From the NCBI GenBank assembly GCA_937989945.1, contig CALKIG010000047.1, forward strand, positions 14,637-78,636: 64,000 nt of DNA, written 5' to 3'. The stretch's first letter is position 1. Each line of letters opens with the position of its first letter. Shown in pieces: positions 3,435 to 20,296 of this stretch. The stretch is from an uncultured Actinomycetes bacterium. GTDB lineage: Bacteria > Actinomycetota > Acidimicrobiia > Spongiisociales > ZC4RG35. Both the position numbers and the translations under genes were made by a program. The notes under the pieces were generated by a model. That model searched no databases and was not told where the DNA came from. It saw only the letters and a program-made list of their open reading frames with translations.

Positions 3435-3905
3435 CTAGCGGACGAGAAGCCGGATCGCCGAGGTGCCTCTGAAGGCCAGCGCCGTTGGAAGGTCGAAGAC
3501 ATCGAACACCACCAACTCCTCGACACCTTCAGCCTCTTCGAGAACGGCCAGTCGGTCAATCAAATAACTGTTGAGGGGATGAGCCTGCGCTTCGCGCATG
3601 GTCTCGTCGGTCTGCCGCCACAGTGACCTCACCTTCCTGGCCACTCTTTCGGCCAGTCTGCCGACGCGCGTCCCACCCCGCATCCAGGCCAGCAGATGGC
3701 GGCGCGCCGCCTGGCTTGCTCGAGTCGGATCCATCACCGCTGGTGAAGCAGACGTCGCATTGACGAGAGTGGTGTCGGGAAGGTCGAATTGGGCGAAGGC
3801 TCCCGGGTCGCCGGTGAAGATGACGTAGTCGTGGGCATCGTCCGCGGCGATGTATGCGGCGCAGGCGTTGGCTCTCAATGTCTGCGTGATGAGGGCTACC
3901 TTCAT
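3435..3905 (-). CDS. Hypothetical protein, 156 aa, the last gene of the minus-strand glycan operon.
   Basis: Its start overlaps the stop of the upstream GT4 gene (ATGA-type coupling). I recognise no domain. Confidence 0.4.
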   Translation of the reverse strand: MKVALITQTLRANACAAYIAADDAHDYVIFTGDPGAFAQFDLPDTTLVNATSASPAVMDPTRASQAARRHLLAWMRGGTRVGRLAERVARKVRSLWRQTDETMREAQAHPLNSYLIDRLAVLEEAEGVEELVVFDVFDLPTALAFRGTSAIRLLVR

Positions 3906-5086
3906 TACTCGATGACCCGGCGGTAGACATCGATGATTTGGCTGGCCACGTTCTCGGCAGCGAAGCGTTCCTCGACCATCGCCCTACCGGCCTGTGGGTC
4001 CAGCCGGGAAATGTCATCTCGTAGCGCCGCAACGCTTTCAGCGATCGCCTCTGGGGGCGTGTCGTTGTCGAGGAGTAGCCCGCAAGCCCGCTCGAGATCA
4101 CCCCAGGTCGACTCGGCCCCGCCATTACGCAGAGACACAACCGGAAGGCCCGATCCGATCGCTTCGAGTGTCGCAATGCCAAATGTCTCGAACGGGCTCA
4201 AGTGAACCAGTACGTCGGCGCCCTCAAAGAAGCCGGTGAGCTCATCGTGGGATCTTGGACCTGCGATTGTGACAGAGCCGGCGATGCCCGCTTGCGACGA
4301 GAATCTCTCGATGGTGGGGCGCAGCGGACCATCCCCAACAACAGTCAGGGTCGCGTTGGGGTCGTAGCTCGTTCGGTACTCGGCGAAGCTGGCGAGGAGA
4401 GCGTCGATGCCCTTGTGGGGCATGAGGCCCCCAACGTAAATCCATGCACTCAGTTTCGTCGTTTTCTTACGTAGGAAAGGCAGATCGGAAAGGTCGACGA
4501 TGTTCGGGATCACCTCGATTTTGTCACGAGCCAGACTGCCGAACGCTTCGATCAGGAGGTCGCGCAGGAAGCTGGATACGCAGATGAATGCCGACGATGC
4601 TTCGAGCGCCTCGCGATATGCCGATCTCGACTCGGGATGGCGCAGGATCTCTTGGAGTGTCGATTGATGTTCGGTGATCACGAGAGGGCTATCACCAAGG
4701 CGCACTGCGGCCCACGCCGTAGGGACACCGAGGTGGGCATGCGTCAGCTCTCCTCTCGGCGGGAGTATGCGACGCTTCAACTCGATCGCCGTGGCGAATG
4801 CTCGGGCCCGTCCCATCTGTCCCGAGCGCGCCGGGACCGGTGCCGGGATCCAGCGCGCACCGTTCTGGTCGTCATAGACGGCTTCGGGGTCCTCGCGTCC
4901 CAGGAAGGCCATCGATTCGTGGATGTTCTCCGGTATGGGCCCGCCCGGTGCCGGGTAGATCGTCGGAACCTCCACGTCGACGATCACGCCTCGAGAGCGA
5001 ACAGCTTCGACGCTTTTCTGAACGAAGATTCCGGAGTAGACCGAGTGTCGGCCGGGATACCAAGGTGTCACGAGATTCACATGCAT
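3905..5086 (-). CDS. Glycosyltransferase family 4 (GT-B fold, retaining).
   Basis: C-terminal GT1/GT4 signature (FFEGADVLVHLSPFETFGIATLEAIGSGLPVV). I place the start at the internal Met of MHVNLVTPWYPG (5086) rather than the ORF-track start 5191, which would overlap the upstream gene. Confidence 0.8.
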   Translation of the reverse strand: MHVNLVTPWYPGRHSVYSGIFVQKSVEAVRSRGVIVDVEVPTIYPAPGGPIPENIHESMAFLGREDPEAVYDDQNGARWIPAPVPARSGQMGRARAFATAIELKRRILPPRGELTHAHLGVPTAWAAVRLGDSPLVITEHQSTLQEILRHPESRSAYREALEASSAFICVSSFLRDLLIEAFGSLARDKIEVIPNIVDLSDLPFLRKKTTKLSAWIYVGGLMPHKGIDALLASFAEYRTSYDPNATLTVVGDGPLRPTIERFSSQAGIAGSVTIAGPRSHDELTGFFEGADVLVHLSPFETFGIATLEAIGSGLPVVSLRNGGAESTWGDLERACGLLLDNDTPPEAIAESVAALRDDISRLDPQAGRAMVEERFAAENVASQIIDVYRRVIE

Positions 5087-5090
5087 CTGG

Positions 5091-5582
5091 TCACGCCCTT
5101 GCGATTGGAGCATTCGGCCAGATCCGGGCAGCGTGCCAGGCCGCGGTTGCCGCGTGGTCATCGCAGTAGACAACCATGCCGGGCTCGACAAGAGACTGGA
5201 GGGCTCGGACCTGGCCCGATATGAGCCGCCAACTGAAGTAGCCTCGTGTCGCCGTGTTCAGCTTGCGGATCATCCTCGCCCAGAACGCCCATGGGTCCCC
5301 GCGGCTGGCTGAACGATTCTCGGCTTTGACCTGCGCCCGGACAGGCAGTCGATTCCTCTCGGCTGCGCTGTACCGAACCACGATCAACCCTTGTTCCATC
5401 AGTATTGGTCCGTTGGCTCCAGGTGACCATCCGTCGAACCAGATGACCTTCTCTCCTGAGCTGCTCCAAGTTTTGGCTCGGCCGACTGCGGAGTCGTAGC
5501 CCTTCTCGGTCACTCCACCAAGGAGTATGAATGCGCGGTCGAAGCCGGGCGTCGACGTGACCAGATCTTCGAGCGAGCTCAT
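5091..5582 (-). CDS. Hypothetical protein, 163 aa, lying between two GT4 genes.
   Basis: It fills the gap between the GT4 genes exactly, with 4-nt start/stop overlaps on both sides. I recognise no domain. Confidence 0.4.
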   Translation of the reverse strand: MSSLEDLVTSTPGFDRAFILLGGVTEKGYDSAVGRAKTWSSSGEKVIWFDGWSPGANGPILMEQGLIVVRYSAAERNRLPVRAQVKAENRSASRGDPWAFWARMIRKLNTATRGYFSWRLISGQVRALQSLVEPGMVVYCDDHAATAAWHAARIWPNAPIARA

Positions 5583-6886
5583 CGGCTCTCTTCGATCAGC
5601 TGAACCATTCTTGCCATTGTCACCTGACGGTCGAAGCTGCGCATAGCCTGTCTCACGAACTGAATGTCGTCGGAGCCCTGCTCCTTGCGGGCTCGCTCAG
5701 CGGCCCTCAAGGCGTTGGCAACGGATTGAACATTCGGGTTGGCCATTTGGGCCAGTGGATGGTCACCAGAGACACGCCGGGCGTCGCCGCCCTCTGCCTG
5801 GACGCACACCAATGGAATCCCGACTGCCATGGCTTCGTAGATCTTGCCACTGGTGACCAGCGGAGAGCCAGGGACCGGCACTATCACTACGTCGAGGGAG
5901 GCGTAGAACGCCGCCACTTCAGACTTCGAGACGGCGCCGATGAACTCGAAACCGTCTGCCTCACCCGGGAGGACGCGCTCAAGGGGCTCGGCGCTCTTGG
6001 CGAAGTATCCGAGGTGGCCACCCAGGATGAGCTTGCTTCCAACAGGTAGCTCATTCCGTACCACTCTCCAGGCCTGAAGAATCGGCTCCAGCGGCCATCT
6101 GTCATTCACGGTTCCGAGGATTCCAAAACGAAGCGGGCCGCCCGCGTATGTCGCTGGAGTGATGTGGACACTGTCTTGGTCGAATCCATTGAGAACGACG
6201 TGTTGTTTGTCGGCAGCGTCTGGATACTTCGTTGCGTAGGCCTCGGCGATGGCATCGTTCACGTGGATGCAGGAGGAGGCGCCGTCGACTATTCGCTTCT
6301 CGACCAGCTCGGTGCCGGCGGGCAGCCTCGCCCGATTGCCTGTGAATACGTCGATCGTCCACGGATCGCGAAAATCAACTGCGTACGGAATATCGAGCTC
6401 ATCGGCTATCCGTCTGGCGGCTTCAAAGGAGGAGAACGGGTTCCCCGTGGCTAGAACGTGGTCGAACTTCTCGCCGCGCTCGGCGATCGCGGCCACTACG
6501 GGGTCGATCCATGAGGAGTAGCTCTCCTCGAGTTCGGGCATCCGGGATGTGATTGGAGCCAGAAGGGAGTCTTTGATCGGTCCCATGAGGCTTCTCCAGG
6601 CCTGCCACATGACCGGGAAGTTGCCGCGAAAATGGCCCACCTCCCTCAGGTCCGGGTCGAAACTGAACGGCACCCGTTCGACTCTCGCAGCTGCGGGTAT
6701 CTCGGATAGCAGGGAGCGGTCGAGAGAGCCTATCTCGTTCTCCAGGAATCGTTCCGTCGTCGTCACAACGGTGACTTCCCACCCGGCCTCGACGAACGCT
6801 CGAGTCGTTGCGAGCGCACGATAGACCCCCGAAGCTCTCGACGGCGGGTACCAGAAAGCTATGTACAGAAGGCGTCGCGAGGTCAT
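5579..6886 (-). CDS. Glycosyltransferase family 4.
   Basis: N-terminal GT4 domain (LLYIAFWYPPSRASGVYR) and a C-terminal E..E motif region (SGKIYEAMAVGIPLV). There is a 4-nt overlap with the ABC ATPase gene. Confidence 0.8.
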   Translation of the reverse strand: MTSRRLLYIAFWYPPSRASGVYRALATTRAFVEAGWEVTVVTTTERFLENEIGSLDRSLLSEIPAAARVERVPFSFDPDLREVGHFRGNFPVMWQAWRSLMGPIKDSLLAPITSRMPELEESYSSWIDPVVAAIAERGEKFDHVLATGNPFSSFEAARRIADELDIPYAVDFRDPWTIDVFTGNRARLPAGTELVEKRIVDGASSCIHVNDAIAEAYATKYPDAADKQHVVLNGFDQDSVHITPATYAGGPLRFGILGTVNDRWPLEPILQAWRVVRNELPVGSKLILGGHLGYFAKSAEPLERVLPGEADGFEFIGAVSKSEVAAFYASLDVVIVPVPGSPLVTSGKIYEAMAVGIPLVCVQAEGGDARRVSGDHPLAQMANPNVQSVANALRAAERARKEQGSDDIQFVRQAMRSFDRQVTMARMVQLIEESR

Positions 6887-7680
6887 CCCTCGGCGATCAT
6901 GCGGTCAAGCTGTGCCCGCTCCTTCGCGGTTTTTTGGAAGTCCTCGTAGGCGGCCGTGACCTCGTTGACCTCACCGGTCATCCGGATCTGGCCTTGGTGT
7001 AGCCAGATTGCTTCGGTAGCCATCTCGGCCACGAGCGAAGAAGAGTGAGATACCACCACGATGGTCTGCGCCTCATTGCACATGTCTTTGACCTTCTGAA
7101 CTGCCTTGCTCCGGAAGGAGGCATCACCAGCGGATAGTGCTTCGTCGATCAGCAAGATCTCCGGGTCCACATGCGTTGCCACGGCAAAAGCCAGCCGTCC
7201 GAACATTCCGGAGCTGTACGTTGTGGTCGGGAGGTCTATGAACCCGCCGATGTCGGCGAACTCGATTATCGACTCTTGCTTGTCGCGTACTTCGTCCATG
7301 CTCATTCCCGCCGCCAGACCGCCCAAGATGACGTTCTCGCGTCCGGAGAGCTTTCTGTTGAAGCCCATCCCCGGGGCAAGGAGATGCGGACGGCCCCAAA
7401 GGTCGATTTGTCCCTGTGAAGGCTTCAAAACCCCTGCAATCGTCTTGAGCAGCGTGGACTTGCCCGCCCCATTGCCCCCCACGAGACCGACGGCACTTCC
7501 GGACTTCACGTTGAAAGAGACATCCTTAACAGCTTCGATGTCTCGTTTACGGGTGTGCTTCTTGAAGGGCGACGTGCGCTGGTGTCGCGGTATCTCGACG
7601 ACTGCCGAGTAGGAGACGGACAGGTCGGTTACGCGTATCGCGTCAGTTCCGGACTGCAAAATCATCCTCCCTCGCAACAA
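6883..7680 (-). CDS. ABC transporter ATP-binding protein of the polysaccharide/teichoic-acid export type (Wzt/TagH/KpsT-like).
   Basis: Walker A GGNGAGKST, ABC signature YSSGM, Walker B LLIDEALSAGD. It is adjacent to an ABC-2 permease. Confidence 0.85.
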   Translation of the reverse strand: MLRGRMILQSGTDAIRVTDLSVSYSAVVEIPRHQRTSPFKKHTRKRDIEAVKDVSFNVKSGSAVGLVGGNGAGKSTLLKTIAGVLKPSQGQIDLWGRPHLLAPGMGFNRKLSGRENVILGGLAAGMSMDEVRDKQESIIEFADIGGFIDLPTTTYSSGMFGRLAFAVATHVDPEILLIDEALSAGDASFRSKAVQKVKDMCNEAQTIVVVSHSSSLVAEMATEAIWLHQGQIRMTGEVNEVTAAYEDFQKTAKERAQLDRMIAEG

Positions 7681-8587
7681 AAATCAGGAATCCGACTATC
7701 ACGGCGCCAATAGCCCATGCCGTGAAGACACCTATCTGACCGACGATGCTCGGCCCACCAGCTTCCAGCGGGCCGCCAAAAGCAATCGTCCAGGCGGTCA
7801 TCCCTGAAAACATCGGATTCCATCTCGCGATCATTTCGAGCGTCGAGGGCCCAAGCACCTGGGTGTACTCCCAGATGGCGGGCGATAGATAGAGCCACAG
7901 CCTCAGGGCGTGGGGCAGTAGCCGTGAGATGTCTCGGATGTAGACGTTGAGCACGGCGAACAGAAGAGACAATCCAAATCCGAAGAGCGACGTGATGACT
8001 ATCAGGACGGGAATCCAGAGCATCTCTATGTGGATCCCTCGCTGTGCGAGGAAGTGGATCGGAACGTAGGCAATCAACGAACGGAGAAAGAGGTTCACGG
8101 AACTGATCGCAGACGCGAACGGAAGCACCACCCTCGGTATGGCTGACTGTGAGAGCAGACCCGCAGCTGCGTTCTGGATCGTGCCGACCCCCGTTGTGAT
8201 CGTCCCTGAGAAGAACATCCAGACGTAGAGGTTCCCGACGATCAGGGCAAGGCGCTCGGCGTCGCCGAGGCCGCCGGCCAGTATCCCGACGAAAATGAAG
8301 TAGATAACTCCAAAGAGGAGCGGGTTGAGCACGTGCCACGCTCGCCCCAGGACCGTCTCGAAATTCCGGGCCTTTATGTCCGCTTTGGACCAGTACCACG
8401 CAAACGTCCGATACCGGAACGCTTCCGAGAGGTAATCGCCGAGGGGAGGCAACCCGAGGGCGGTGGTCCGGCGCGAAATAGGGGGATTGGTGTCTTCGGT
8501 AGTTGCAGCGTCCACTAGTCGTCGATTGTGGGAACGGCCGCATGTTAGCGGTCCCCCGGACGCATGCTCAGGTGAGCCGCCGAGCAA
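7643..8587 (-). CDS. ABC-2 type transporter permease (Wzm/TagG-like). The start is uncertain.
   Basis: N-terminal ABC-2 motif region (FRYRTFAWYWSKADIKARNFETVLGRAWHVLNPLL) followed by six hydrophobic segments. A GTG alternative start lies near 8515. Confidence 0.75.
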   Translation of the reverse strand: MLGGSPEHASGGPLTCGRSHNRRLVDAATTEDTNPPISRRTTALGLPPLGDYLSEAFRYRTFAWYWSKADIKARNFETVLGRAWHVLNPLLFGVIYFIFVGILAGGLGDAERLALIVGNLYVWMFFSGTITTGVGTIQNAAAGLLSQSAIPRVVLPFASAISSVNLFLRSLIAYVPIHFLAQRGIHIEMLWIPVLIVITSLFGFGLSLLFAVLNVYIRDISRLLPHALRLWLYLSPAIWEYTQVLGPSTLEMIARWNPMFSGMTAWTIAFGGPLEAGGPSIVGQIGVFTAWAIGAVIVGFLIFVAREDDFAVRN

Positions 8588-8594
8588 CCCTTGG

Positions 8595-9641
8595 CTATGA
8601 GATGTGCCCCGCTACCGCTTCGACGATCGCCTCGGCTGCCTTGCCTTCGCCGTAGGGATTACCTCTGTCGCCCTCCGGCATCCGGATGACCAGTTCTGCA
8701 AGGCGACTCAGCTCTGAGCCCGCAAGCACGTTCCAACCGCCCTCGAGAGTTTCTGGCCATTCGGTCTCGTCACGAAGCGTCGTGCACCGAGTTCCGAGAA
8801 TGAAGGCCTCCTTCTGCAAGCCACCTGAGTCAGTGATCAGCCCCTCGCTATCGCTGACGACCTTGAGCATCTTGGAGTACGGCAAGGGGTCGCGCACGAA
8901 GACATTCGCAGGAACCGGCACCTGGTGGCGATCGAGGTAACCAGCCAACCTGGGGTGAGCCAAGAGATGAACCGGCGAGCCGATCTCTCCCAATGCGGAC
9001 ATTATCGAGCCGAGTCTCTCCGGGTCGTCGGTGTTTGATGGCCGGTGAATGGTTGCCACGTGGTATTCGCCTCGGGCCCATTCCGGTTGTGCAACATCGT
9101 CGAGGTTGACGGAGATCAAGGCGTCGACCATCACATCCCCGGTCAGGGTCGATCGGTCCGACAAGCCTTCGTTTCCGAGATGCGCCATGGCCAGTTCTGT
9201 TGGAGCTAGAAGCAAGTCGCTCAGATGGTCGGTTGCGACGCGATTGAGTTCCTCCGGCATCTCGCGGTTGAACGAACGCAAGCCTGCTTCGACGTGCGCT
9301 GTGAACACATGTAGCTTGGTCGCCGCAAGGGCGGCTGCCACGGTCGAGTTGGTATCTCCATAGGTGAGAACCGCATCCGGACGCCGATCGAGGATGAGGT
9401 CTTCGATTCCTTCGAGCATCCTTGCCGTCTGTGCACCATGCCTGTCTGAGCCGACGCCGAGATTCACGTCAGGGTCTCGAAGGCCAACGTCTCTCATGAT
9501 GGCGTCGGACATGAGGTCGTCGTAATGCTGACCCGTGTGGACGAGGGTCTCGTCGATACCCGCTCGCTGCAAGGCTCGGCTCACCGGTCCTGCCTTGATG
9601 AATTGGGGGCGAGCTCCTACGACGTTCATGACTGACGGCAT
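8595..9641 (-). CDS. wecB: UDP-N-acetylglucosamine 2-epimerase, non-hydrolysing (WecB/MnaA/WbpI family).
   Basis: N-terminal VVGARPQFIK and the HVEAGLRSFN...PEELNR motif typical of the family. It is the first gene of the minus-strand operon. Confidence 0.8.
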   Translation of the reverse strand: MPSVMNVVGARPQFIKAGPVSRALQRAGIDETLVHTGQHYDDLMSDAIMRDVGLRDPDVNLGVGSDRHGAQTARMLEGIEDLILDRRPDAVLTYGDTNSTVAAALAATKLHVFTAHVEAGLRSFNREMPEELNRVATDHLSDLLLAPTELAMAHLGNEGLSDRSTLTGDVMVDALISVNLDDVAQPEWARGEYHVATIHRPSNTDDPERLGSIMSALGEIGSPVHLLAHPRLAGYLDRHQVPVPANVFVRDPLPYSKMLKVVSDSEGLITDSGGLQKEAFILGTRCTTLRDETEWPETLEGGWNVLAGSELSRLAELVIRMPEGDRGNPYGEGKAAEAIVEAVAGHIS

Positions 9642-9774
9642 CCCGGCAATCTATTTCCGCCCGGCTGACTCGCCAAGTTTTGCAACCTAGGGTTCACTGT
9701 CACACATTGGCGGTGCTCTACCGGTATCCTCCGGCTGCCGACCAGGCTTCGTCGCCTACGATCCAGGTGAGCCA
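9642..9774. promoter_or_regulatory. Divergent intergenic region that probably holds promoters for the wecB-ABC-GT operon (minus strand) and the wbpDEBA-like operon (plus strand).
   Basis: 133-nt non-coding gap between the divergently oriented first genes of two multi-gene operons. I could not pick out specific -35/-10 boxes with confidence. Confidence 0.3.
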
Positions 9775-10353
9775 ATGAGGGCCGACACAGCAGATATCGA
9801 CACGCGCGCCCAGGTCGCCGACTCTGCGCGCATATGGCATCTCGCCCAGGTACGGGAAGGTGCCGTCGTCGGCGAGAATTGCATCGTCGGCCGAGGCGCG
9901 TACATCGACGCCGGCGTAGAAGTCGGCGACAACTGCAAGATTCAAAACAACGCACTCATTTACGCTCCGGCGGTACTCGAGGACGGTGTCTTTGTGGGGC
10001 CTGCTGTCGTCTTTACCAACGACACTTTTCCTCGGGCCATAAATCCGGATGGGTCTCTCAAGGCCGCCGCCGATTGGGAGGCGAGAGGCGTCACGGTGCG
10101 CCGCGGTGCCGCGATCGGGGCCCGCTCTGTGGTACTCGGCGGCGTTGAGGTGGGAGAGTGGTCGCTCGTTGCTGCCGGCTCGGTAGTCACCAAAGACGTT
10201 CCCGCACATGCTCTCGTGCGAGGTGTGCCGGCGCGGCAGGTGGCATGGGTTGGGTTCAGCGGACGCGTCCTCGAAGTCGATGGCAGCGATTTGGTCGACC
10301 CTGCTGACGGCACGAGGTTCTTTGAGAATGGAGAGAGGTTGAGCAAGAGATGA
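9775..10353 (+). CDS. Left-handed beta-helix (hexapeptide-repeat) sugar N-acetyltransferase, WbpD/WlbB-like.
   Basis: Hexapeptide repeats (NCIVGRGAYIDAGVEVGDNCKIQNNALI). It is translationally coupled (ATGA) to the downstream aminotransferase. Confidence 0.75.
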   Translation: MRADTADIDTRAQVADSARIWHLAQVREGAVVGENCIVGRGAYIDAGVEVGDNCKIQNNALIYAPAVLEDGVFVGPAVVFTNDTFPRAINPDGSLKAAADWEARGVTVRRGAAIGARSVVLGGVEVGEWSLVAAGSVVTKDVPAHALVRGVPARQVAWVGFSGRVLEVDGSDLVDPADGTRFFENGERLSKR

Positions 10354-11417
10354 TCATTCTGTCCAAGCCGTCGATCGGCCAAGAGGAGATCGATGCGGTG
10401 ACCGAGGTCTTGCGGAGTGGCATGCTCGCCGGGGGAAGGAGGGTGATCGAGTTCGAGTCTCGCTTCGCCGACATGGTCGGGGTGGCTCATGGCGTTGCGC
10501 TGGGAAGCGGCACCGCGGCTCTCCACATCGGGCTTCTTGCGGCTGGAATAGGCCCCGGTGACGAGGTCATCGTGCCGTCCTTCACCTTCGCTGCTACAGG
10601 CAACTCCGTCCGAATGGTGGGGGCGGAGCCGGTTTTCGTCGATGTCGATCCGGTTGACTTCACGATTCATGCAGATGCGATCAAGCCTGCGATAACCGAC
10701 AAGACCCGGGCGGTGATGCCTGTCCACCTTTACGGGCAGATGGCTCCGACGGACGGGATCATCGAGCTTGCAGACACACACGGCATCGATGTCATCGAAG
10801 ATGCCGCACAGGCCCATCTCGCCAGAAGCGGAAGCCTCACGGCGGGCGCGGCAGGTCGGTTTGGGGCTTTTTCCTTCTACCCGACCAAGAACATGACCAC
10901 GGGCGAGGGTGGAATGATCACGACCGACGACACCGAATTGGCCGAACGGGCGAAGATGCTGCGCAACCAGGGGATGTCAGAGCGATACGTACATCCGATG
11001 GTTGGGCTCAACGAGAGAATGACGGAGATCGAGGGGGCAATCGGACTCGTCCAGCTCGGCAAGGTGGAGGAGTGGACCGACCGACGACGCGAAATCGCGT
11101 CGACTTACGATGACAGGCTCGACCCGGCCCTGGGCCTCCCGACGGAGCGTGCCGACGCCTACCACGTCTATCACCAATACACGCTGTGCCCGCCCGATCG
11201 GAAACCGATCGCTGCAGCTCTCGAAAACGCCGGGATCGGCTTTGGCGTCTACTACCCGGCAGGAACGCACGAGCAGGCACCCTACCGCGGTCCTGACTAC
11301 CAGCTGCCGGTGACCGAGGATCTCGCCCGCCGGGTGATTTCGATCCCGGTTCGACAAGATCTCACCGATTCCGAGATCGACCTGATCGTCGAGACCCTGA
11401 ACGCCGCGGTGGCATGA
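10350..11417 (+). CDS. DegT/DnrJ/EryC1/StrS-family PLP-dependent sugar aminotransferase, WbpE-like.
   Basis: Family motifs FSFYPTKNMTTGEGGMITTDD and the Lys-containing region. ATGA overlaps on both sides. Confidence 0.85.
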   Translation: MIILSKPSIGQEEIDAVTEVLRSGMLAGGRRVIEFESRFADMVGVAHGVALGSGTAALHIGLLAAGIGPGDEVIVPSFTFAATGNSVRMVGAEPVFVDVDPVDFTIHADAIKPAITDKTRAVMPVHLYGQMAPTDGIIELADTHGIDVIEDAAQAHLARSGSLTAGAAGRFGAFSFYPTKNMTTGEGGMITTDDTELAERAKMLRNQGMSERYVHPMVGLNERMTEIEGAIGLVQLGKVEEWTDRRREIASTYDDRLDPALGLPTERADAYHVYHQYTLCPPDRKPIAAALENAGIGFGVYYPAGTHEQAPYRGPDYQLPVTEDLARRVISIPVRQDLTDSEIDLIVETLNAAVA

Positions 11418-13680: not shown

Positions 13681-14666
13681 ACCGCCAGGTCAGGCCTGTG
13701 TCTTTCCCATTCCTCCTCGGCGAGTTGTCTCGAACGGGAACGTAGTTCTTCGGACCAGCTGCGATCGCCAGCGAGACGCTCCAAGACCGACCGTGCTTCA
13801 TTCATGTCACGCACGATCAAATCGCTTGATAGTTTCTCCAAGAACCGGCTCTGGCCGGGCAAGTCACTTCCAACCGGTGGAATTCCTGCGGCACAGTATT
13901 CCCACAGCTTTGTGGCGACTGCCTCGCGATAGGCGGGAAGTGGCTGTAGGAGAGACAGGCCCGCCAACGCACCGCTGATCATTGTCCAGGCCTCGGCATG
14001 CGGACGACGGCCCGCTAGCTCGAGATTGTCGGGGGCAATCGACTCCATCCGTGATCTCACGTCAGCATCAACCCTCCCAACGATCAGAAAGCGGAAGTCC
14101 GGCATGCTCGCGGCAAGCTCGGCCATCGCCACAGCGCCCCGGGCGATCGTCACATCGCCGACGTAGGCGACCATTGCCGGGAGTGCCGGAGGGTGCTGTT
14201 CGAACTCCGACGGGTCGGGAATGTTCAGGACAACATTGGAGGTGCGCCCGGCGAGCTCCGGTGCGGCGACAAGGTTTGCGTGGGCAACCCGGCGAGCGAC
14301 GCGATCATTGAGCCAAGCAAAGGCGGCGACCAGGGGTTTCAGCAACGTTGGAATCCAATCCCTCCCCGAAGCGGCTCGTGCGTAGTCCTCATGTACGTCG
14401 ATCACCGTCCTCACTCCCCGGAAACGACCGATCAACGAGCCGACCACGAATAGTTCAGGATCGGGGAGAAGCACGGCATGTGCCCTTCGCCTCCAAATGA
14501 GACCGAACGCACTGATCGCGTTCCTGATGCGGCCAGTGCCGCCGTCCCCCATGAGCGCGATGATGCTGGCGTCCTGCCCGGCGTTCTTCAGATAAGCCAG
14601 GTGTCTGTTGAGCCTCGGATCGCCTTCCCAATGGGCTGTGGTCAGGATCAGGACGCTCTCACTCAT
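13620..14666 (-). CDS. Glycosyltransferase, GT4-like.
   Basis: C-terminal EAVATKLWEYCAAGIPPVGSD motif. The preferred start is MSESVLILT (14666); the ORF track extends to 14717. Confidence 0.65.
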   Translation of the reverse strand: MSESVLILTTAHWEGDPRLNRHLAYLKNAGQDASIIALMGDGGTGRIRNAISAFGLIWRRRAHAVLLPDPELFVVGSLIGRFRGVRTVIDVHEDYARAASGRDWIPTLLKPLVAAFAWLNDRVARRVAHANLVAAPELAGRTSNVVLNIPDPSEFEQHPPALPAMVAYVGDVTIARGAVAMAELAASMPDFRFLIVGRVDADVRSRMESIAPDNLELAGRRPHAEAWTMISGALAGLSLLQPLPAYREAVATKLWEYCAAGIPPVGSDLPGQSRFLEKLSSDLIVRDMNEARSVLERLAGDRSWSEELRSRSRQLAEEEWERHRPDLAVQRVFAPRPMTRRRGDSSPK

Positions 14667-15597
14667 CTTCAGCACCGTTGAGGAATCCGAGACCCCAGGC
14701 GAGATGCATGGTGGCAAGCGCTGGAATCGTCCCGAGGTTCGGACGGAGGCGCCTTGGCATCACCAGGACACCTACGAGCAGGGCAATCGGATACAAGGCC
14801 CACAACGTGAGTGCCCACGGCCAAACGATGGCGGCAAGAGCGCTGAGTACGAGGACCATCACCAAGAATGGGGGAGCGAGCTGGCGCCATCTAAGGCTGC
14901 CCGGGTGTCGGCGCATGAACTTCTTCTTTGCCTGTCCGTACTGGAAGTACTGCGACCAGAGCTCCTTCAGAGATCCACGTGGCTTGTATTGCACTTCGAG
15001 GCGGGGATCGAACCAGACGACACCACCCGCTTCGATGATGCGATGATTCAGCTCATAGTCCTGGGTGCGAACGAAGTCCTCGTCGTATCCCCCCACTTGC
15101 TCGAGCACCGCCCTGTCGAACACTCCCAGATAGACGGTCTCGACGGGCCCCTCTTCACCTCCCGTTCGGTAGCGCGCGTCGCCGGCTCCGAGTGGCGAAG
15201 ACATGGCTGCAGCGATCGCCCTCTCCCAAAACGTGTCTCCGGCAGGCACCTGCATTCCTCCGACGTTGGCGGCGCCGGTCCGCCTCATCGTCTCGACTGC
15301 CTTCGACACGTATTGGGTAGGAAGGATCGACTGTGCGTCACAACGAACGATGACGTCGCCGGTGGCCAGTGCAATTGCGAGGTTGAGGCCCGCCGGCGTC
15401 TTGCCAGATGGATTGTCGACGGTGATTGCCCCCTTATCGGCGGCGGCCCTCTTTGTGGCATCATCGCCGGCGGCCACAATGACTTCCAAGATGTGGGGGT
15501 AGTCCTGTCCCATGATCGACTCGATGGCCTTCCCGACCTGACTCTCTGCATTGAGCGCCGGCATGACGACCGATACAGATGGCTGGGATGCTTCCAT
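14659..15597 (-). CDS. Glycosyltransferase family 2 with C-terminal transmembrane helices.
   Basis: GT-A N-terminus VSVVMPALNAE, a DxD-like motif (GDVIVRCDAQ) and two C-terminal hydrophobic helices. Confidence 0.8.
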   Translation of the reverse strand: MEASQPSVSVVMPALNAESQVGKAIESIMGQDYPHILEVIVAAGDDATKRAAADKGAITVDNPSGKTPAGLNLAIALATGDVIVRCDAQSILPTQYVSKAVETMRRTGAANVGGMQVPAGDTFWERAIAAAMSSPLGAGDARYRTGGEEGPVETVYLGVFDRAVLEQVGGYDEDFVRTQDYELNHRIIEAGGVVWFDPRLEVQYKPRGSLKELWSQYFQYGQAKKKFMRRHPGSLRWRQLAPPFLVMVLVLSALAAIVWPWALTLWALYPIALLVGVLVMPRRLRPNLGTIPALATMHLAWGLGFLNGAEDE

Positions 15598-15618: not shown

Positions 15619-16308
15619 GTGCCCTCTGATCTGACGACCATCGCCGATCCGGCGTTCATTCTCCTGGCCTGGAGCGCCGGGCTCGTGCTTGTCGTGTCTT
15701 TCGTTTCATTCGCACGGATCGTCGGACCCGGCTTCACATGGCTGGCTGCCGGCTTCTCTCTCCTGATAGCGCTTCCGGCGCTGTTTGCAGTCGGAGCATG
15801 GTGGGCGCGGGCGGGTGGTCTTGCCGTCGTGCTCGCCCTCGTATGGGCACGAAATCATGCGTTCGCAGGGCTACTCATGTTGGTCGGGGGGCTGGCTCTG
15901 GCGGTCGAAGGCTCGCTCCTTGCGGGGTCGCTCCCCACAGCTTCGGCGGCTTTGGCCTTGGGCGGGGTCACAGGCGAGATGGCGTTGGGTCATTGGTATC
16001 TGGTCGATCCCAGGCTTCCCCGGTGGGCGTTGAATGGCCTTGCTGCGACCGCAATCATCGGACTGATTGGAGACAGCCTGGTTCTGTGGCTGGGCGTCGG
16101 CTTCCCGTCGGGTGGAGGCCAGCTGGCGTATTGGGTCCTGGGCGCGACTTCCATCCTGTTGATGGCTGGGGTGTTGGGGTCGCTGCGATATCCGGCCTAT
16201 TCCGGGGTGATGGCTGCCACGGGTTTGTCTTATCTGGCCGTGCTGACCACCCTCGGTGTGATTTTCTTGGGGCGGGCCCTGGCGATTGGCTTGGGCCCAT
16301 TTGCCTGA
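15619..16308 (+). CDS. Polytopic membrane protein of unknown function.
   Basis: About six hydrophobic segments and no recognised motif. It lies between the GT2 gene and pepA. Confidence 0.5.
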   Translation: MPSDLTTIADPAFILLAWSAGLVLVVSFVSFARIVGPGFTWLAAGFSLLIALPALFAVGAWWARAGGLAVVLALVWARNHAFAGLLMLVGGLALAVEGSLLAGSLPTASAALALGGVTGEMALGHWYLVDPRLPRWALNGLAATAIIGLIGDSLVLWLGVGFPSGGGQLAYWVLGATSILLMAGVLGSLRYPAYSGVMAATGLSYLAVLTTLGVIFLGRALAIGLGPFA

Positions 16309-16311
16309 AGC

Positions 16312-17769
16312 GTGGTCCGAGGAGGGAGATTTCACATGGAAATGAAGGTGGTCGAGCACGACGTTGTGCCGGGGGGATCCACTGTGATCGCCGGCGTCCT
16401 GAGTGAGCTCAATCCGTTGCCAGGCTCTGAGACCGTGCTCGATTCCGTCGATGAGGCGCTCTTGAAGGCTTCCGGATTCGAGGGCAAGCCCGGTCAGGTG
16501 CTAACGCTTCCGAGGGGTGATGGAATCGCAGTCCTCGTTGGTATCGGGGACGAGGCAAGCTTTGAGTCGCTTCGCACTGCCGCCGGGAATGCGATCAGGG
16601 CGGTGAAGACGCCCGGTGCCATTTGTCTCCTGGCTCAAGCTCCGGTTGATGGGGCCACCCGCGCTGTGGCCGAGGGACTCGGGCTCGGGGCCTACCAATA
16701 TCGCAACTACAAGACCAAGTCGGACGACGAGTTGACGGTCGAGGTTGTCGAGATCCCCGGGGGGTCAGGGGAAGAGCTGGACAGAGCTCTGGCGGGAATC
16801 GATGCGACCAACCTCGCTCGGGACCTCACGAACACGCCTGCTGCAGATACCGCGCCCAGCGAGGTGGCTGCAGTTCTCGAGAGGGCGGCCGCAGACCTGC
16901 CGGTTGAAGTCGAGGTCTGGGACGAAGCCCGGATTCGCGAAGAGTCCCTTGGTGCGTTGCTGGGTGTCGCAGCCGGCTCGGACCGTCCTCCCGTTCTCGT
17001 CGTGATGTCTTACCAGCCGGAGTCTTCACACAAGCATCTCGGCCTGGTGGGCAAGGGGATCACGTTCGATTCTGGCGGGCTCTCTCTCAAGACTGCATCG
17101 TTGATGGAAGAGATGAAAGACGACATGACGGGGGCCGCCGTGGTTGGGGCTGCAACGATAGGCATTGCCCGTCTCGGCCTACCTGTTCGCGTCACGACGG
17201 TCATCCCGCTCACTGACAACGCTGTGGGCGGAAATGCGATGCGCCCCGGTGATGTGTTGCGCCCGGTTGCCGGACCAACAATCGAGGTCCTCAACACCGA
17301 CGCGGAAGGCCGGCTGATTCTCGCCGACGGGCTCGGTGTGGTTCGCCGTTATGAGCCGGACATGATCGTTGATGTCGCAACCTTGACCGGGGCCTCCAAG
17401 GTCGCTCTCGGCGAGAAAATCGCTGCCGTCTTTGGTTCTACGAGCAATGTTGCATCTCTCGTTCTCGAGGCCGCCTCCCGTGCCGGCGAGTTCTTCTGGG
17501 AGCTGCCCCTCTTCCGCCACTATCGAACGAACCTCGACTCGAACATCGCCGATATCAAGAACATCACAGGCGGCCGGTACGGTGGGGCGATAGCGGCTGC
17601 GCTCTTTCTCAGCGAATACGCCGGGGAAGGTGATTGGGCGCATCTCGACATCGCCGGCCCGGCTCGGTGGCGGGAGACGGCCGGCGAGCAAGTCAAGGGC
17701 GGTTCGGGCGTTGGGGTCCGTACGCTGATCGAGCTTGCTGCGACGCTTGGGGATCGCGCCCCCAAATAA
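16312..17769 (+). CDS. pepA: Leucyl aminopeptidase (M17 family).
   Basis: M17 signature NTDAEGRLILADGL and the GKGITFDSGG motif. The start may be the internal Met at 16336. Confidence 0.85.
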   Translation: MVRGGRFHMEMKVVEHDVVPGGSTVIAGVLSELNPLPGSETVLDSVDEALLKASGFEGKPGQVLTLPRGDGIAVLVGIGDEASFESLRTAAGNAIRAVKTPGAICLLAQAPVDGATRAVAEGLGLGAYQYRNYKTKSDDELTVEVVEIPGGSGEELDRALAGIDATNLARDLTNTPAADTAPSEVAAVLERAAADLPVEVEVWDEARIREESLGALLGVAAGSDRPPVLVVMSYQPESSHKHLGLVGKGITFDSGGLSLKTASLMEEMKDDMTGAAVVGAATIGIARLGLPVRVTTVIPLTDNAVGGNAMRPGDVLRPVAGPTIEVLNTDAEGRLILADGLGVVRRYEPDMIVDVATLTGASKVALGEKIAAVFGSTSNVASLVLEAASRAGEFFWELPLFRHYRTNLDSNIADIKNITGGRYGGAIAAALFLSEYAGEGDWAHLDIAGPARWRETAGEQVKGGSGVGVRTLIELAATLGDRAPK

Positions 17770-17795
17770 GCGTTCGGAGCCCTAGCATCTTCGTG

Positions 17796-19079
17796 ATGCG
17801 CTCTCGGTTCCTGTTTTCGGTCGCGCTGGGAGACCTCGCCGCCCTGGCGCTGTCGATCGTCGTCAGCTCGGCCTACGTGTTCGGGGCTTTTCTGCCCTGG
17901 AACGGGCAGCCCGGAGAACGCGTCTACCCCCTTCTTCTCTTGTTGGCGGGGTCCATGGCTCTCGCCTCTTGGTTGACCGAGTCGATGTCCCCCCACGGCG
18001 TCCCCCGGCCTACCTACGGTCGGATGCTCTCGATTTGGCTCATAACCATTGCCACCACTGCGGTCGGTTTGGTGCTATTTCGTGAGATCTACTTCTCCCG
18101 CCGCCTCATCATCGGTGTCACTCTCTTGTGGCTCCTGTTCGCCTCACTGCACCGTCTGTTGCGCAGGCGCAAACCGTGGCAGGAGCGTCTCGGACTGATC
18201 ACCAGAGAGAAAGAGCTCGTGAAGCATCTCGAAGACGCCGACCACACAGATGTCGTTTGGGTCCTCGATCCTCAGTCGGAAGGACAGATCGAGCTTCCAG
18301 ACAGAAACGTCACGCTCGCCGTCGACCTCAGAGCTGTCCTATCCGAGAGAGTGGCCCAGTTCATCTCGTCCTGCGATGTGGCGGGCTACACGATCAAGCC
18401 ATTCACGTCGGTATACGAGGAGCACGTCGGTCGCGTCCCGCTCGTGCATCTGGCAGAGGGCTGGGAGATATCGGCCCCGTTGTTGGAGGTGGCTCGATGG
18501 CTACCTGGCAAGCGTGTCTTCGATGTTGTGGTCGCAGCCGTCACTGCCCCCTTGTGGTTGGTCGTCGGCCTCGGAGTGGGCATCTATGTGAAACTGACCT
18601 CGCCCGGACCCGCGATATTCCGGCAACGGCGAATCGGGCATGGGGGTAAGCCGTTCACGATGCTCAAGTTCCGCACTATGAATGCAGATGCTGAACAATC
18701 AGGGCCGAGATTCGCTACGGAGAACGACACGAGGATCTTCAAGGGCGGAAACTTCATCCGGAAGGCGCATCTCGACGAGATCCCACAGTTGGTCAACGTG
18801 CTCACTGGTGACATGAGCCTGGTAGGGCCAAGGGCTGAGCAAATTCCCTTCGTGCGTGCATTCCGAAAGCAGATCCCCTTCTATGACCACCGTCATCTGG
18901 TGAGGCCCGGCATCACTGGCTGGGCTCAGGTCAGCTACGGATATGCCGATGATTCAGCAGACACGATTGAGAAGCTGACATACGACCTCTACTACATAAA
19001 GCACATGTCTCCGGTGTTCGACCTGAAGGTGCTGGCACGCTCGTTCCTGATAGTGCTGACGGGTCGGGGAGCCAGATGA
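17796..19079 (+). CDS. Polyprenyl glycosyl-phosphotransferase (bacterial sugar transferase family, WbaP/WcaJ-like initiating enzyme).
   Basis: N-terminal TM helices and the C-terminal conserved block PGPAIFRQRRIGHGGKPFTMLKFRTM...GDMSLVGPR. I chose the start after the pepA stop; the ORF-track start 17634 overlaps pepA. Confidence 0.85.
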   Translation: MRSRFLFSVALGDLAALALSIVVSSAYVFGAFLPWNGQPGERVYPLLLLLAGSMALASWLTESMSPHGVPRPTYGRMLSIWLITIATTAVGLVLFREIYFSRRLIIGVTLLWLLFASLHRLLRRRKPWQERLGLITREKELVKHLEDADHTDVVWVLDPQSEGQIELPDRNVTLAVDLRAVLSERVAQFISSCDVAGYTIKPFTSVYEEHVGRVPLVHLAEGWEISAPLLEVARWLPGKRVFDVVVAAVTAPLWLVVGLGVGIYVKLTSPGPAIFRQRRIGHGGKPFTMLKFRTMNADAEQSGPRFATENDTRIFKGGNFIRKAHLDEIPQLVNVLTGDMSLVGPRAEQIPFVRAFRKQIPFYDHRHLVRPGITGWAQVSYGYADDSADTIEKLTYDLYYIKHMSPVFDLKVLARSFLIVLTGRGAR

Positions 19080-20296
19080 CCGAAGCCATGATCGAGACCC
19101 AGCCTCGAGGATTCCGCGCGCCCGGAACCACATTCATGGTCACGGGCGGGCTCTTGGGTGCTGTGGGCGCCTACCTCTTCCAGGTCATCGGCGCGAACGC
19201 AATCGGCTCGGAGGCATTCGCACCGATCAGCCTGTTGTGGACGGCGTTCTTCATCCTCGCCACGGTCGCTCTCGTGCCCATTGAACAATACGTGACTCGG
19301 GAGGTGGCCTCGGGTCGCAAGGCAATACCTAGCGCGGCGAAGGCAACCTACTGGTTCGTTGTCGCAGCCGCAGTCGTCGCAGGCTTGTTCGTGACAGTGA
19401 CCAGGGACTCGCTCTTCGAGGGCAGCTGGCAATACGTGATCCAAGCCGTGCTTCTCGTCATCGGATACGCGCTTCTTTTCTTCGGTAAAGGCGTCCTCGC
19501 GGGTAGACGGCGCTTCGCCGATGTGGGATGGGTTCTCATCATCGAAACCGCCGTGAGGCTGCTTGCCGGCATCGTGGCCATCCAACTGTTCACTGATGCC
19601 GAGTCATTGGGTTGGGCGATGGTGTTGGGCGGATTCTCTGTGCTGGGCTTGCGTTGGTGGAGACGCGATGTCGGCGACGATGATGCCGAACCGGCTCCGG
19701 CCAGTCGCTTCCTGAGCGGGTATGTCGGTGGGTCTGCTTCGTCCCAACTCTTGCTCGGTGGAGCCCCCCTAGCGGCTGCTGCATTCGGTGCCTCGCCGTC
19801 GCTCGTCTCCGTGATCTTTGTCACGTTCACGCTGTACAGAGCCCCCCTGACCTTGATCTTTGCCTTGCAGGGCCGGATCCTTCCCTATCTGGTAGGGCTT
19901 TCGGGAGGCGCCGATCGAGCCAGACTTGCACGCATCGCTGGTGTGGTCGTCGTCTCTGGCGTTGGCCTCGCAGCGCTCGGAGCTCTGGTTGGCTGGCTCG
20001 TGGGCCCCGAGGTAGTGGGATTGCTCTACAACGAGGAGTTCATCCCCGGTCGTGGCGTCGCCGCACTCGCGGCGGGTGGAGTGATGGCTGCCGCTGCGGC
20101 TCAGATTGCGGGCCAGGTCCTCGTTGCCGAGGGCAGAACGACGCGCCTCGCGATCGCTTGGTTCCTTGGCCTTCTGGTCGGTGTCGTCACGATGCTCATC
20201 TACAGGCCCGAGCCGGCCTTGAGAGTGGCCACCGGCTTCGCCACTGGAGAAGCAGTCGCGCTGTTCGTCATGTGGGCTCTCGCCGCGCGGAGCTAG
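19076..20296 (+). CDS. Multi-pass membrane protein, a putative polysaccharide biosynthesis/flippase (Wzx/MOP-like) protein.
   Basis: More than ten hydrophobic segments. It is coupled to the phosphotransferase gene by an ATGA overlap. The family assignment is tentative. Confidence 0.5.
   Translation: MTEAMIETQPRGFRAPGTTFMVTGGLLGAVGAYLFQVIGANAIGSEAFAPISLLWTAFFILATVALVPIEQYVTREVASGRKAIPSAAKATYWFVVAAAVVAGLFVTVTRDSLFEGSWQYVIQAVLLVIGYALLFFGKGVLAGRRRFADVGWVLIIETAVRLLAGIVAIQLFTDAESLGWAMVLGGFSVLGLRWWRRDVGDDDAEPAPASRFLSGYVGGSASSQLLLGGAPLAAAAFGASPSLVSVIFVTFTLYRAPLTLIFALQGRILPYLVGLSGGADRARLARIAGVVVVSGVGLAALGALVGWLVGPEVVGLLYNEEFIPGRGVAALAAGGVMAAAAAQIAGQVLVAEGRTTRLAIAWFLGLLVGVVTMLIYRPEPALRVATGFATGEAVALFVMWALAARS

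Follow-up and report, generated by a model that had tools for sequence, protein, structure and literature searches.

Gene content of the locus

We analyzed a stretch of DNA of 64,000 nucleotides, in the following called the window, from an uncultured bacterium of the class Acidimicrobiia (phylum Actinomycetota), and focused on a locus at 3435-20296 which is predicted to direct the synthesis and export of an anionic glycopolymer. The sugar in question is ManNAc3NAcA, the manno form of 2,3-diacetamido-2,3-dideoxy-glucuronic acid (GlcNAc3NAcA), activated with uridine diphosphate (UDP) and derived from UDP-N-acetylglucosamine (UDP-GlcNAc). Gene content was determined from the listing of open reading frames (ORFs) together with Pfam and NCBIfam scans, and all genes that the original prediction, made from the letters of the sequence, had listed for this interval were found. 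For comparison, 69 loci were collected by an oxidoreductase scan of species-representative genomes, and all window proteins were compared by tblastn. Loci are referred to by number; those from metagenome-assembled genomes (MAGs) of Acidimicrobiia are L001, L002/L009, L004, L005, L007 and L010. Glycosyltransferases (GTs) are named by family, and lengths are given in amino acids (aa). The features of the locus are:

3435-3905, minus strand: small soluble hypothetical protein, 156 aa, last gene of the ATP-binding cassette (ABC) operon (G+C at third codon positions, GC3, 0.74; 39% identical counterpart at the same position in L005)
3905-5191, minus strand: GT4 glycosyltransferase GT4a (Glycos_transf_1 6.7e-24, Glyco_transf_4 6.5e-16)
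5091-5582, minus strand: small soluble hypothetical protein, 163 aa (GC3 0.71; 39% identity in L005, 29% in L007)
5579-6886, minus strand: GT4 glycosyltransferase GT4b, UtrG-like candidate ManNAc3NAcA transferase (Glyco_trans_1_4, Glyco_trans_4_4)
6883-7680, minus strand: ABC exporter ATPase, Wzt/TagH-like, 265 aa (ABC_tran 1.5e-21)
7643-8587, minus strand: ABC-2 type permease, Wzm/TagG-like (ABC2_membrane 4.5e-8; galactan Wzm model 2.9e-9)
8595-9641, minus strand: predicted UDP-GlcNAc3NAcA 2-epimerase of the WecB family (WbpI/WlbD/UtrH analogue), first gene of the ABC operon
9642-9774: divergent intergenic region between the two operons, 133 bp, from ORF coordinates
9775-10353, plus strand: left-handed beta-helix (LbH) N-acetyltransferase, WlbB/WbpD/UtrJ analogue (Hexapep 6.3e-22)
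10350-11417, plus strand: pyridoxal phosphate-dependent sugar aminotransferase, WbpE/UtrA analogue (DegT_DnrJ_EryC1 2e-116)
11414-12379, plus strand: predicted Gfo/Idh/MocA sugar C3-dehydrogenase, functional analogue of WbpB/WlbA/UtrB (GFO_IDH_MocA N- and C-terminal domains)
12376-13680, plus strand: UDP-N-acetylhexosamine 6-dehydrogenase, WbpA/UtrD analogue (three UDPG_MGDP_dh domains)
13620-14717, minus strand: GT-B glycosyltransferase GT4c (Glyco_trans_1_2 7.9e-8)
14659-15597, minus strand: GT2 glycosyltransferase with C-terminal membrane helices (Glycos_transf_2 7.3e-14)
15619-16308, plus strand: conserved 8-helix membrane protein, 229 aa (AlphaFold 2 model, pLDDT 91.6)
16312-17769, plus strand: leucyl aminopeptidase PepA (Peptidase_M17 2.7e-110; NF002073 458 bits, cut-off 432)
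17796-19079, plus strand: polyprenyl-phosphate phosphoglycosyl transferase, WbaP/WcaJ-type initiating enzyme, 427 aa (Bac_transf 1.3e-60)
19076-20296, plus strand: candidate Wzx-like flippase of the multidrug/oligosaccharidyl-lipid/polysaccharide (MOP) superfamily, 406 aa (AlphaFold 2 model, pLDDT 84.5; Foldseek)

G+C content is about 61% throughout the window, and every ORF, both small hypotheticals included, shows the order GC3 > GC1 > GC2 of the coding type. The minus-strand operon runs from 9641 down to 3435 in the order 2-epimerase, Wzm, Wzt, GT4b, 163-aa hypothetical, GT4a and 156-aa hypothetical. Most junctions overlap by 1-4 nt: the 163-aa hypothetical overlaps the stop of GT4b by 4 nt, and the start of the 156-aa hypothetical overlaps the stop of GT4a by 1 nt. 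The 4-nt overlaps support the operon structure of the ABC genes, and an exporter operon including the epimerase and two GT4s, as proposed earlier, is indeed present. On the plus strand the genes for the LbH acetyltransferase, the DegT aminotransferase, the Gfo/Idh/MocA oxidoreductase and the 6-dehydrogenase follow each other in this order. Each of the three junctions is a 4-nt ATGA overlap, in agreement with the translational coupling claimed for these genes.

The region between both operons had been described as a divergent promoter region. The gap of 133 bp is there, but 9642-9774 holds no match to the sigma-70 consensus and the consensus promoter scan gave 0 promoters; a promoter function is suggested by the arrangement of the genes. 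Counts from the terminator scan were no higher than in shuffled sequence. GT4c and GT2, which had been placed downstream of the sugar genes, are present as well, but they lie on the minus strand, converge with the sugar operon and do not belong to the same transcription unit. The 3' ends of the 6-dehydrogenase gene and GT4c overlap by 61 nt (13620-13680; 17-22 nt in L001 and L002), leaving no space for terminators between the two transcription units. Several ORFs extend beyond the probable gene start. GT4a probably starts with the ATG at 5086 (393 aa) and GT4c at 14666 (348 aa, as called on the source contig), PepA is called from 16336, and for the phosphoglycosyl transferase, whose maximal ORF begins at 17634, the start at 17796 follows the gene calls on the source contig and its relatives.

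Enzymes of the predicted sugar pathway

The strongest single piece of evidence for the predicted sugar comes from the specificity residues of the 2-epimerase. The best PDB match of this enzyme is the UDP-2,3-diacetamido-2,3-dideoxy-glucuronic acid 2-epimerase of T. thermophilus (8sxv, 1.8e-87, 297 bits), the sole enzyme of this specificity with a characterised structure. The M. jannaschii enzyme 4neq is the second-best solved relative at an intermediate 5.5e-72, and the UDP-GlcNAc 2-epimerases of Bacillus, E. coli, Staphylococcus and Neisseria reach about 1e-37. In the Thermus epimerase, Trp307 stands where UDP-GlcNAc epimerases have a conserved Arg for binding of the 3'-OH, Ala18 replaces Leu/Met and Tyr96 replaces His/Gln near C6; these three residues fit it to a bulkier substrate with a 3-NAc group and a 6-carboxylate (PMC10622841). 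Alignment to 8sxv shows that K16-A17, Y94-G-D96 and E295-W296 of the window epimerase reproduce Ala18, Tyr96 and Trp307, giving both the Trp for the 3'-OH-binding Arg and the Tyr/Ala pair near C6. The catalytic Asp is kept, and the catalytic residues are identical to those of the Thermus enzyme. The full Ala/Tyr/Trp signature was found in 5/5 Acidimicrobiia epimerase orthologues checked, while the UtrH-like epimerases of Streptomyces keep Tyr and Trp with Leu at the Ala position.

The acetyltransferase has WlbB, a UDP-GlcNAc3NA N-acetyltransferase, as its best solved relative (3mqg, 3.3e-35, 125 bits). The next PDB match scores 97 bits, 28 bits behind, and the top match places the enzyme with the LbH N-acetyltransferases of the WlbB/WbpD type. 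Not all top matches are 3-N-acetyltransferases: one of them, 7s43, is Pcryo_0637, a Psychrobacter 4-amino (bacillosamine-type) N-acetyltransferase (PMC8040287).

PDB matches of the aminotransferase are led by 7b0d (4e-80) and a perosamine synthase (1e-70), with WbpE (3nu7) following at 2.8e-64, so that the sequence of this enzyme alone leaves its regiochemistry unfixed. The gene context points to C3. The window enzyme is 46-50% identical to the aminotransferases adjoining the 3-dehydrogenase in actinomycete loci.

The best NCBIfam match of the oxidoreductase is the archaeal UDP-GlcNAc 3-dehydrogenase model NF040723 (211 bits, cut-off 450), and the best PDB matches are 7bvj (4.7e-19) and 3q2k (6.7e-15). 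Alignment to 7bvj shows that the EKP and DLxxHDxD motifs are retained. Homologues with 67-87% identity occur in Acidimicrobiia MAGs and many metagenomes, and the Acidimicrobiia homologues are named 'UDP-N-acetylglucosamine 3-dehydrogenase' by JGI. No chain named WbpB or WlbA is found among its 60 best PDB matches (E up to 5e-4); the enzyme would therefore be a functional analogue of P. aeruginosa WbpB and not its orthologue, and a WbpB/WlbA orthologue acting on UDP-GlcNAcA was not found.

The 6-dehydrogenase passes only the generic model TIGR03026 (301 bits, cut-off 190), and the models for UDP-ManNAc dehydrogenases and TviB all stay below their cut-offs. Its best specific matches are nevertheless UDP-ManNAc dehydrogenases (4r16 4e-62, Cap5O 2e-55, NF040825 246 bits). 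Identity to the dehydrogenases of actinomycete cassettes is 56-67%. With these results the labels 'WbpB-like' and 'WbpA-like' given to the two dehydrogenases are to be read as functional analogy, not as orthology. Pfam scans of the ORFs in 3.4-20.3 kb detected no 4,6-dehydratase of the short-chain dehydrogenase/reductase (SDR) type, as had been stated, which removes alternatives with a 4-amino-6-deoxy sugar.

We also considered that the 6-dehydrogenase might act WecC-like, after epimerisation (the 'archaeal' order), and rejected this. The UDP-ManNAc models score far below cut-off. In Streptomyces, 6-dehydrogenases close to a 2-epimerase and those with none nearby share up to 97-99% identity, S. 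antibioticus, which lacks the epimerase, makes the gluco uronic acid (PMC13274773), and the window epimerase has the Tyr/Ala pair that is linked to the C6 carboxylate (PMC10622841). Near-identical dehydrogenases in both kinds of loci, together with the gluco product of S. antibioticus, argue for a gluco substrate and for the epimerase as the last enzyme. The C3 dehydrogenase is nearest to the archaeal UDP-GlcNAc 3-dehydrogenase, so that it may take either UDP-GlcNAcA (the Pseudomonas order of the early steps) or UDP-GlcNAc as its substrate.

Exporter, assembly genes and their conservation

Permease and ATPase genes are adjacent and share their operon with glycosyltransferases. The ATPase has no C-terminal carbohydrate-binding domain. 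Its best NCBIfam matches are a teichoic-acid export ATPase (216 bits) and the galactan Wzt (190 bits), both below cut-off; scores of 216, 190 and 167 bits stand against cut-offs of 538, 400 and 320, and Wzm reaches 37 bits of 380, so neither protein is assigned to a named equivalog (TagH, galactan Wzt/Wzm). In Acidimicrobiia loci the ATPase is 75-83% and the permease 61-83% identical. GT4b shows 44-57% identity in Acidimicrobiia loci and 32-39% to the GT4 adjoining the 2-epimerase in loci of the Streptomyces utr type, where UtrG is predicted to add ManNAc3NAcA (PMC13274773). GT4a has only sub-threshold NCBIfam matches, TuaC among them, and is 52% identical in L005 and about 30-33% identical to GTs in some actinomycete loci. 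The 156-aa and 163-aa hypotheticals gave no Pfam or NCBIfam match, with Pfam extended to E<=10.

In the block beyond the sugar operon, GT4c is convergent with the operon and conserved at the same position in Acidimicrobiia loci (41-52% identity), as is the GT2 (53-70%), which is hydrophobic from residue 240 on. The phosphoglycosyl transferase reaches 300 bits with TIGR03025 (cut-off 295.6) and is not of the TagO/WecA type. For the 406-aa protein no Pfam match was obtained, even at E<=10, though some of its homologues match PF01943 and bear the JGI name 'O-antigen/teichoic acid export membrane protein'. All Foldseek PDB matches of its AlphaFold 2 model down to E 2e-3 are MOP proteins (MATE 2.3e-7, WzxE, MurJ), and the lipid III flippase WzxE aligns over the full length (1.3e-5, TM 0.69/0.68). 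At the level of the modelled fold, the label 'Wzx-like' thus appears justified. Homologues of the 406-aa protein are 64-86% identical across Acidimicrobiia, and conservation as high as this is atypical for O-antigen Wzx proteins. The protein may flip a short conserved unit, linked to lipid and assembled by the phosphoglycosyl transferase, GT4c and GT2, or it may act for another glycan. ORFs scanned across the window include no Wzy polymerase and no polysaccharide co-polymerase (PCP/Wzz) regulating chain length; the sole unassigned membrane protein is the 229-aa protein. That two assembly routes, ABC exporter and flippase, converge at this locus is a possibility and not a result.

The 229-aa protein gave no NCBIfam match and no Pfam match even at E<=10. 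It has 1238 homologues; among the 120 listed, those with a taxon label belong to Acidimicrobiia or unclassified Actinobacteria, and those with a name are all called 'hypothetical'. The motif GGVTGEMxLGHWYLVDPRLPRW is near-invariant in the family. Its AlphaFold 2 model has no significant fold match in the PDB (best E 0.024, TM about 0.5, subunits of the CydB/PsrC type). The gene always lies between GT2 and pepA, here 21 bp from the divergent GT2 start, and this synteny suggests that the protein may belong to the glycan system. PepA, a housekeeping-type gene amid glycan genes, is found at the same position in all Acidimicrobiia loci reaching that far (L001, L002, L004, L010). It is probably not part of the pathway.

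A comparison between strains had been suggested as a check of whether the locus varies. Across the sampled Acidimicrobiia MAGs the whole arrangement was found to be syntenic and conserved, with 41-84% identity. Synteny includes the four sugar genes, the convergent GT4c and GT2, the 229-aa protein, pepA, the phosphoglycosyl transferase, the MOP protein and PBP1A. Epimerase, Wzm, Wzt and GT4b are kept together, either adjoining the four-gene operon (L005) or a few kb away (L001, L007, L010). GT4a and the two small hypotheticals, which form the distal part of the ABC operon, are far less conserved (29-52%). In L001, the epimerase-ABC unit is separated from the four-gene operon by FG-GAP/peptidase genes (5037-8266 of that locus), one of them 56% identical to the first of the two secreted-type genes at 14-3427 of the window. 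The two operons have thus been rearranged relative to each other.

Cassettes of the sugar enzymes were also detected in Streptomyces, Actinomadura, Glycomyces, Nonomuraea, Kineosphaera, Knoellia, Nakamurella, Pseudactinotalea and Planktophila, where the enzymes lie within about 12 kb. Window proteins are about 47% (aminotransferase), 52% (3-dehydrogenase), 66% (6-dehydrogenase), 50-54% (epimerase) and 52-61% (acetyltransferase, compared with the LbH gene) identical to their counterparts in these cassettes. By Pfam, the Streptomyces locus L012 encodes an aminotransferase, an oxidoreductase, a GT2 with TarS linker, a 6-dehydrogenase and an SDR epimerase, and on the opposite strand two GT4s, a 2-epimerase and an LbH acetyltransferase. 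This layout agrees with that of utrA-E/utrF-J in S. griseus (PMC13274773). The view that such a pathway is unusual for an actinobacterium-like genome did not hold: homologous cassettes occur in many actinomycetes, and the polymers of Streptomyces are chemically established (PMC13274773). The same paper cites a 2011 review of actinomycete teichuronic acids.

In L051, from the cultured Micrococcales species Pseudactinotalea suaedae, acetyltransferase, aminotransferase, 3-dehydrogenase and 6-dehydrogenase genes follow each other in the order of the window at about 3-12 kb. They are adjoined by Wzm/Wzt and three GT4s, with no 2-epimerase within 10 kb. From a cassette with an ABC exporter and no 2-epimerase one would expect this culturable organism to export a GlcNAc3NAcA polymer by the ABC route.

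Two further genes were considered for attachment of the polymer to the cell wall:

32891-34141, plus strand: LCP (LytR-CpsA-Psr) ligase, candidate for wall attachment, not locus-specific (LytR_cpsA_psr 7.6e-43, LytR_C 7.7e-14)
34176-35450, plus strand: ugd, UDP-glucose 6-dehydrogenase-type enzyme (three UDPG_MGDP_dh domains, 1.7e-48, 1e-35, 2.3e-29)

Both are found at 32.9-35.5 kb, where they had been noted as near the locus; ugd is only about 25% identical to the 6-dehydrogenase of the locus. They belong to a block at 32891-49142 which holds LCP, ugd, cofE, cofD, a large GT2, DUF5719, a small GT2, a manB-type phosphomutase, pgi and sahH, presumably the conserved actinobacterial housekeeping region around mycobacterial Rv3248c-Rv3267 / Lcp1. 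With LCP in such a block, its proximity is weak evidence for a functional link. The large GT2 is an ORF of 1090 aa that overlaps cofD by about 470 nt, hence its real start lies further downstream.

Predicted polymer and alternative readings

We consider it probable that the locus makes UDP-ManNAc3NAcA from UDP-GlcNAc and that this sugar is built into a lipid-linked, exported anionic glycopolymer. The assignment of the sugar as ManNAc3NAcA is well supported by sequence comparison and very likely correct. The five-enzyme route of the original prediction is borne out by the epimerase residues, the WlbB-like acetyltransferase, the C3 oxidoreductase with the DegT aminotransferase, the 6-dehydrogenase and the missing 4,6-dehydratase. 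In this route C3 would be oxidised by the Gfo/Idh/MocA enzyme and transaminated by the DegT enzyme, the new amine would be N-acetylated by the LbH enzyme and C6 would be oxidised to the acid by the 6-dehydrogenase. These four enzymes together would yield UDP-GlcNAc3NAcA, which the 2-epimerase would finally convert to the manno form.

For the subsequent steps, co-transcription of the exporter with the epimerase and GT4b suggests that undecaprenyl phosphate would carry the growing chain in the cytoplasm and that Wzm/Wzt would export it, and the model of an ABC-exported polymer is plausible. GT4b would be the likely ManNAc3NAcA transferase. The phosphoglycosyl transferase would probably prime the chain, and GT4c and GT2 could possibly make a linkage region. 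As the likeliest fate, an LCP ligase would attach the chain to peptidoglycan, giving a teichuronic-acid-like polymer. What we infer from these genes is wall linkage, the sequence of the first reactions and the parts played by the glycosyltransferases and the MOP protein.

Several points weigh against this interpretation. The pathway is known in this organism from genes alone. The aminotransferase is not closest to WbpE, and 4-aminotransferases score higher; the oxidoreductase scores below the cut-off of its nearest equivalog model. It is only distantly related to 3q2k and 3q2i, which we take to be the solved WlbA-type chains, and nothing named WbpB appears among its best 60 matches. For the 6-dehydrogenase the best specific models are those of UDP-ManNAc dehydrogenases, all below cut-off. 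The locus holds no initiator of the TagO/WecA type, no Wzy, no PCP and no TarS-like linker glycosyltransferase. A MOP flippase is present, so ABC export is not the sole possible route, and 13 kb separate the locus from the LCP gene, which sits in a housekeeping block.

The foremost alternative accepts ManNAc3NAcA but places it in a polymer that is not linked to peptidoglycan (a glycan borne by a protein of the surface or S-layer, a lipoglycan, or a capsule or exopolysaccharide that is released), or assumes two independent glycans, one an ABC-exported polymer and the other a short glycan that the phosphoglycosyl transferase would start and the Wzx-like protein would flip. Phosphoglycosyl transferase, GT4c, GT2 and MOP flippase by themselves make up a conserved, syntenic block. 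The predicted MOP fold and the lack of Wzy and PCP would fit a short flipped oligosaccharide, and the LCP gene is distant. Furthermore, the S-layer protein glycans of Geobacillus (WsaP, Wzm/Wzt) are known to be started by a phosphoglycosyl transferase and then exported by an ABC transporter, which also counts in favor of this alternative. On the other hand, the window revealed no O-oligosaccharyltransferase and no ligase of the Wzy_C type, it does encode an LCP ligase, and the closest characterised actinobacterial polymers are wall-associated (PMC13274773). We regard this alternative as rather unlikely.

A wider version of the wall-polymer reading would be a class-wide conserved, possibly essential ManNAc3NAcA secondary wall polymer that replaces teichoic acids in Acidimicrobiia. 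Here the phosphoglycosyl transferase would prime, MOP flippase and ABC exporter would each handle one part, and the 229-aa protein would be a new ligase- or polymerase-like component. Taken together, these assumptions have a low probability.

It is improbable that the locus serves two separate products, with epimerase and 6-dehydrogenase as a WecB/WecC pair making UDP-ManNAcA and the other three enzymes making a non-uronic UDP-GlcNAc3NAc by GnnA/GnnB-type reactions and acetylation. The UDP-ManNAc dehydrogenases 4r16, Cap5O and NF040825 as best specific matches of the 6-dehydrogenase would fit such a split, as would an oxidoreductase whose nearest family takes UDP-GlcNAc and not UDP-GlcNAcA (NF040723; JGI names). 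However, the models for UDP-ManNAc dehydrogenases all stay far below their cut-offs, and dehydrogenases are nearly identical with or without a nearby epimerase. The epimerase carries Trp for the 3'-OH-binding Arg together with Tyr/Ala and is a far better match to the diacetamido uronic acid epimerase. The four genes are translationally coupled, and orthologous Streptomyces cassettes give di-N-acetylated uronic acids, in the gluco form without epimerase (PMC13274773).

That aminotransferase and acetyltransferase make a 4-amino sugar of the bacillosamine or QuiNAc4NAc type is hardly credible: 4-aminotransferases such as perosamine synthase score above WbpE and the 4-amino enzyme Pcryo_0637 (7s43) is among the PDB matches of the acetyltransferase (3.6e-23; function from PMC8040287), but 3.4-20.3 kb holds no 4,6-dehydratase or SDR gene, translational coupling joins the aminotransferase to a C3-type Gfo/Idh/MocA dehydrogenase, the acetyltransferase matches WlbB best by a clear margin and the epimerase signature fits a 3-NAc substrate.

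The predicted ManNAc3NAcA polymer is best compared to the utr clusters of Streptomyces. The utr cluster of S. griseus makes [->3)GalNAc-alpha(1->4)-ManNAc3NAcA-beta(1->]n on ribitol-phosphate teichoic acid, as determined by nuclear magnetic resonance (NMR) (PMC13274773, Cell 2025), and S. antibioticus, with a cluster that lacks the 2-epimerase, makes a GlcNAc3NAcA homopolymer (PMC13274773). Both utrA-E/utrF-J (PMC13274773) and the window locus hold the same five precursor enzymes, with 47-67% identity as measured against Streptomyces loci of utr layout. As in the window, aminotransferase and oxidoreductase are adjacent, a GT4 lies beside the 2-epimerase and the phylum is the same; clustering of the five enzymes with this GT4 was confirmed by tblastn and by Pfam of L012. 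Related gene sets and matching polymers are therefore already known in Streptomyces, and this is not a new kind of system. It differs from the utr clusters in its own, dedicated ABC exporter, in the phosphoglycosyl transferase and MOP flippase and in a conserved housekeeping neighborhood by PBP1A. The TarS-like UtrC, the TarM-like UtrF, the 4-epimerase UtrE and the O-acetyltransferase UtrI have no counterpart at the window locus, so nothing points to grafting onto ribitol-phosphate teichoic acid. In particular, no GT2 with TarS_linker is present: L012 has one, and the GT2 at 14659-15597 is without it. While utr loci are described as diversifying between close Streptomyces species, the Acidimicrobiia locus is conserved (55-84%).

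WbpA/B/E/D/I of P. aeruginosa O5 and WlbA-D of Bordetella carry out the same five steps to the same end product, with the epimerase last. WlbB is the best solved relative of the window acetyltransferase and WbpE a strong, not the top, match of the aminotransferase, whereas the C3 dehydrogenase falls into a different Gfo/Idh/MocA subgroup. For WbpB, recycling of alpha-ketoglutarate is known, and WbpA has neither a solved structure nor a family model. The gene order here is D-E-B-A, and the product would be an envelope polymer of the Gram-positive type instead of an O-antigen of lipopolysaccharide. The UDP-GlcNAc3NAcA 2-epimerase of T. thermophilus HB27 (8sxv; PMC10622841) shares catalytic and specificity residues with the window epimerase and covers one enzyme of the pathway only.

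Among archaeal systems, the UDP-GlcNAc 3-dehydrogenase MMP0352 of M. maripaludis represents the nearest family model for the oxidoreductase, at 211 bits against the equivalog cut-off of 450. Presumably MMP0350-0353 have the same order of acetyltransferase, aminotransferase, oxidoreductase and dehydrogenase. The archaeal product decorates N-glycans on dolichol carriers. MMP0352 reportedly acts on UDP-GlcNAc. A preprint speaks of it only as UDP-GlcNAc dehydrogenase (bioRxiv 10.1101/2023.03.18.533286).

With respect to export, the window pair resembles TagGH and the mycobacterial galactan Wzm/Wzt in combining an ABC-2 permease with a short ATPase without carbohydrate-binding domain. Cytoplasmic glycosyltransferases in the same operon and an LCP ligase in the genome are further common traits. 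Unlike in TagGH systems, the nearby initiator is a phosphoglycosyl transferase of the Bac_transf family and not TagO/WecA, and the window holds no genes of the TagA/TagB/TagF type.

Acidimicrobiia are mostly uncultured. They occur in many environmental metagenomes, and a full-text literature search found no paper joining Acidimicrobiia with 'cell wall' and 'teichuronic'. The locus offers a testable prediction of a major anionic surface polymer in this class, which would be a likely receptor of their phages or toxins. It extends the ManNAc3NAcA cassette, recently tied to the teichuronic acids of Streptomyces, into a deep actinobacterial lineage, where the cassette is linked to a dedicated ABC exporter and appears conserved, not diversifying. 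As the biochemistry is established, the gain lies in annotation and comparative insight and not in a new mechanism.

The rest of the window is core chromosome with SecA, PrfB, FtsEX, methylmalonyl-CoA mutase and acyl-CoA carboxylase. The ABC operon is flanked by genes at 14-3427 on the plus strand for two proteins of the secreted type, which contain FG-GAP repeats and LysM/OapA-like segments; one of them has an additional SpoIID domain. On the other side of the locus, the MOP gene is followed, ahead of PBP1A, by an ORF of 147 aa without family match (20268-20711, minus strand), which shares 29 nt with the 3' end of the MOP gene. L001 and L002 also have small unannotated genes at this position, of 140 aa and 85 aa.

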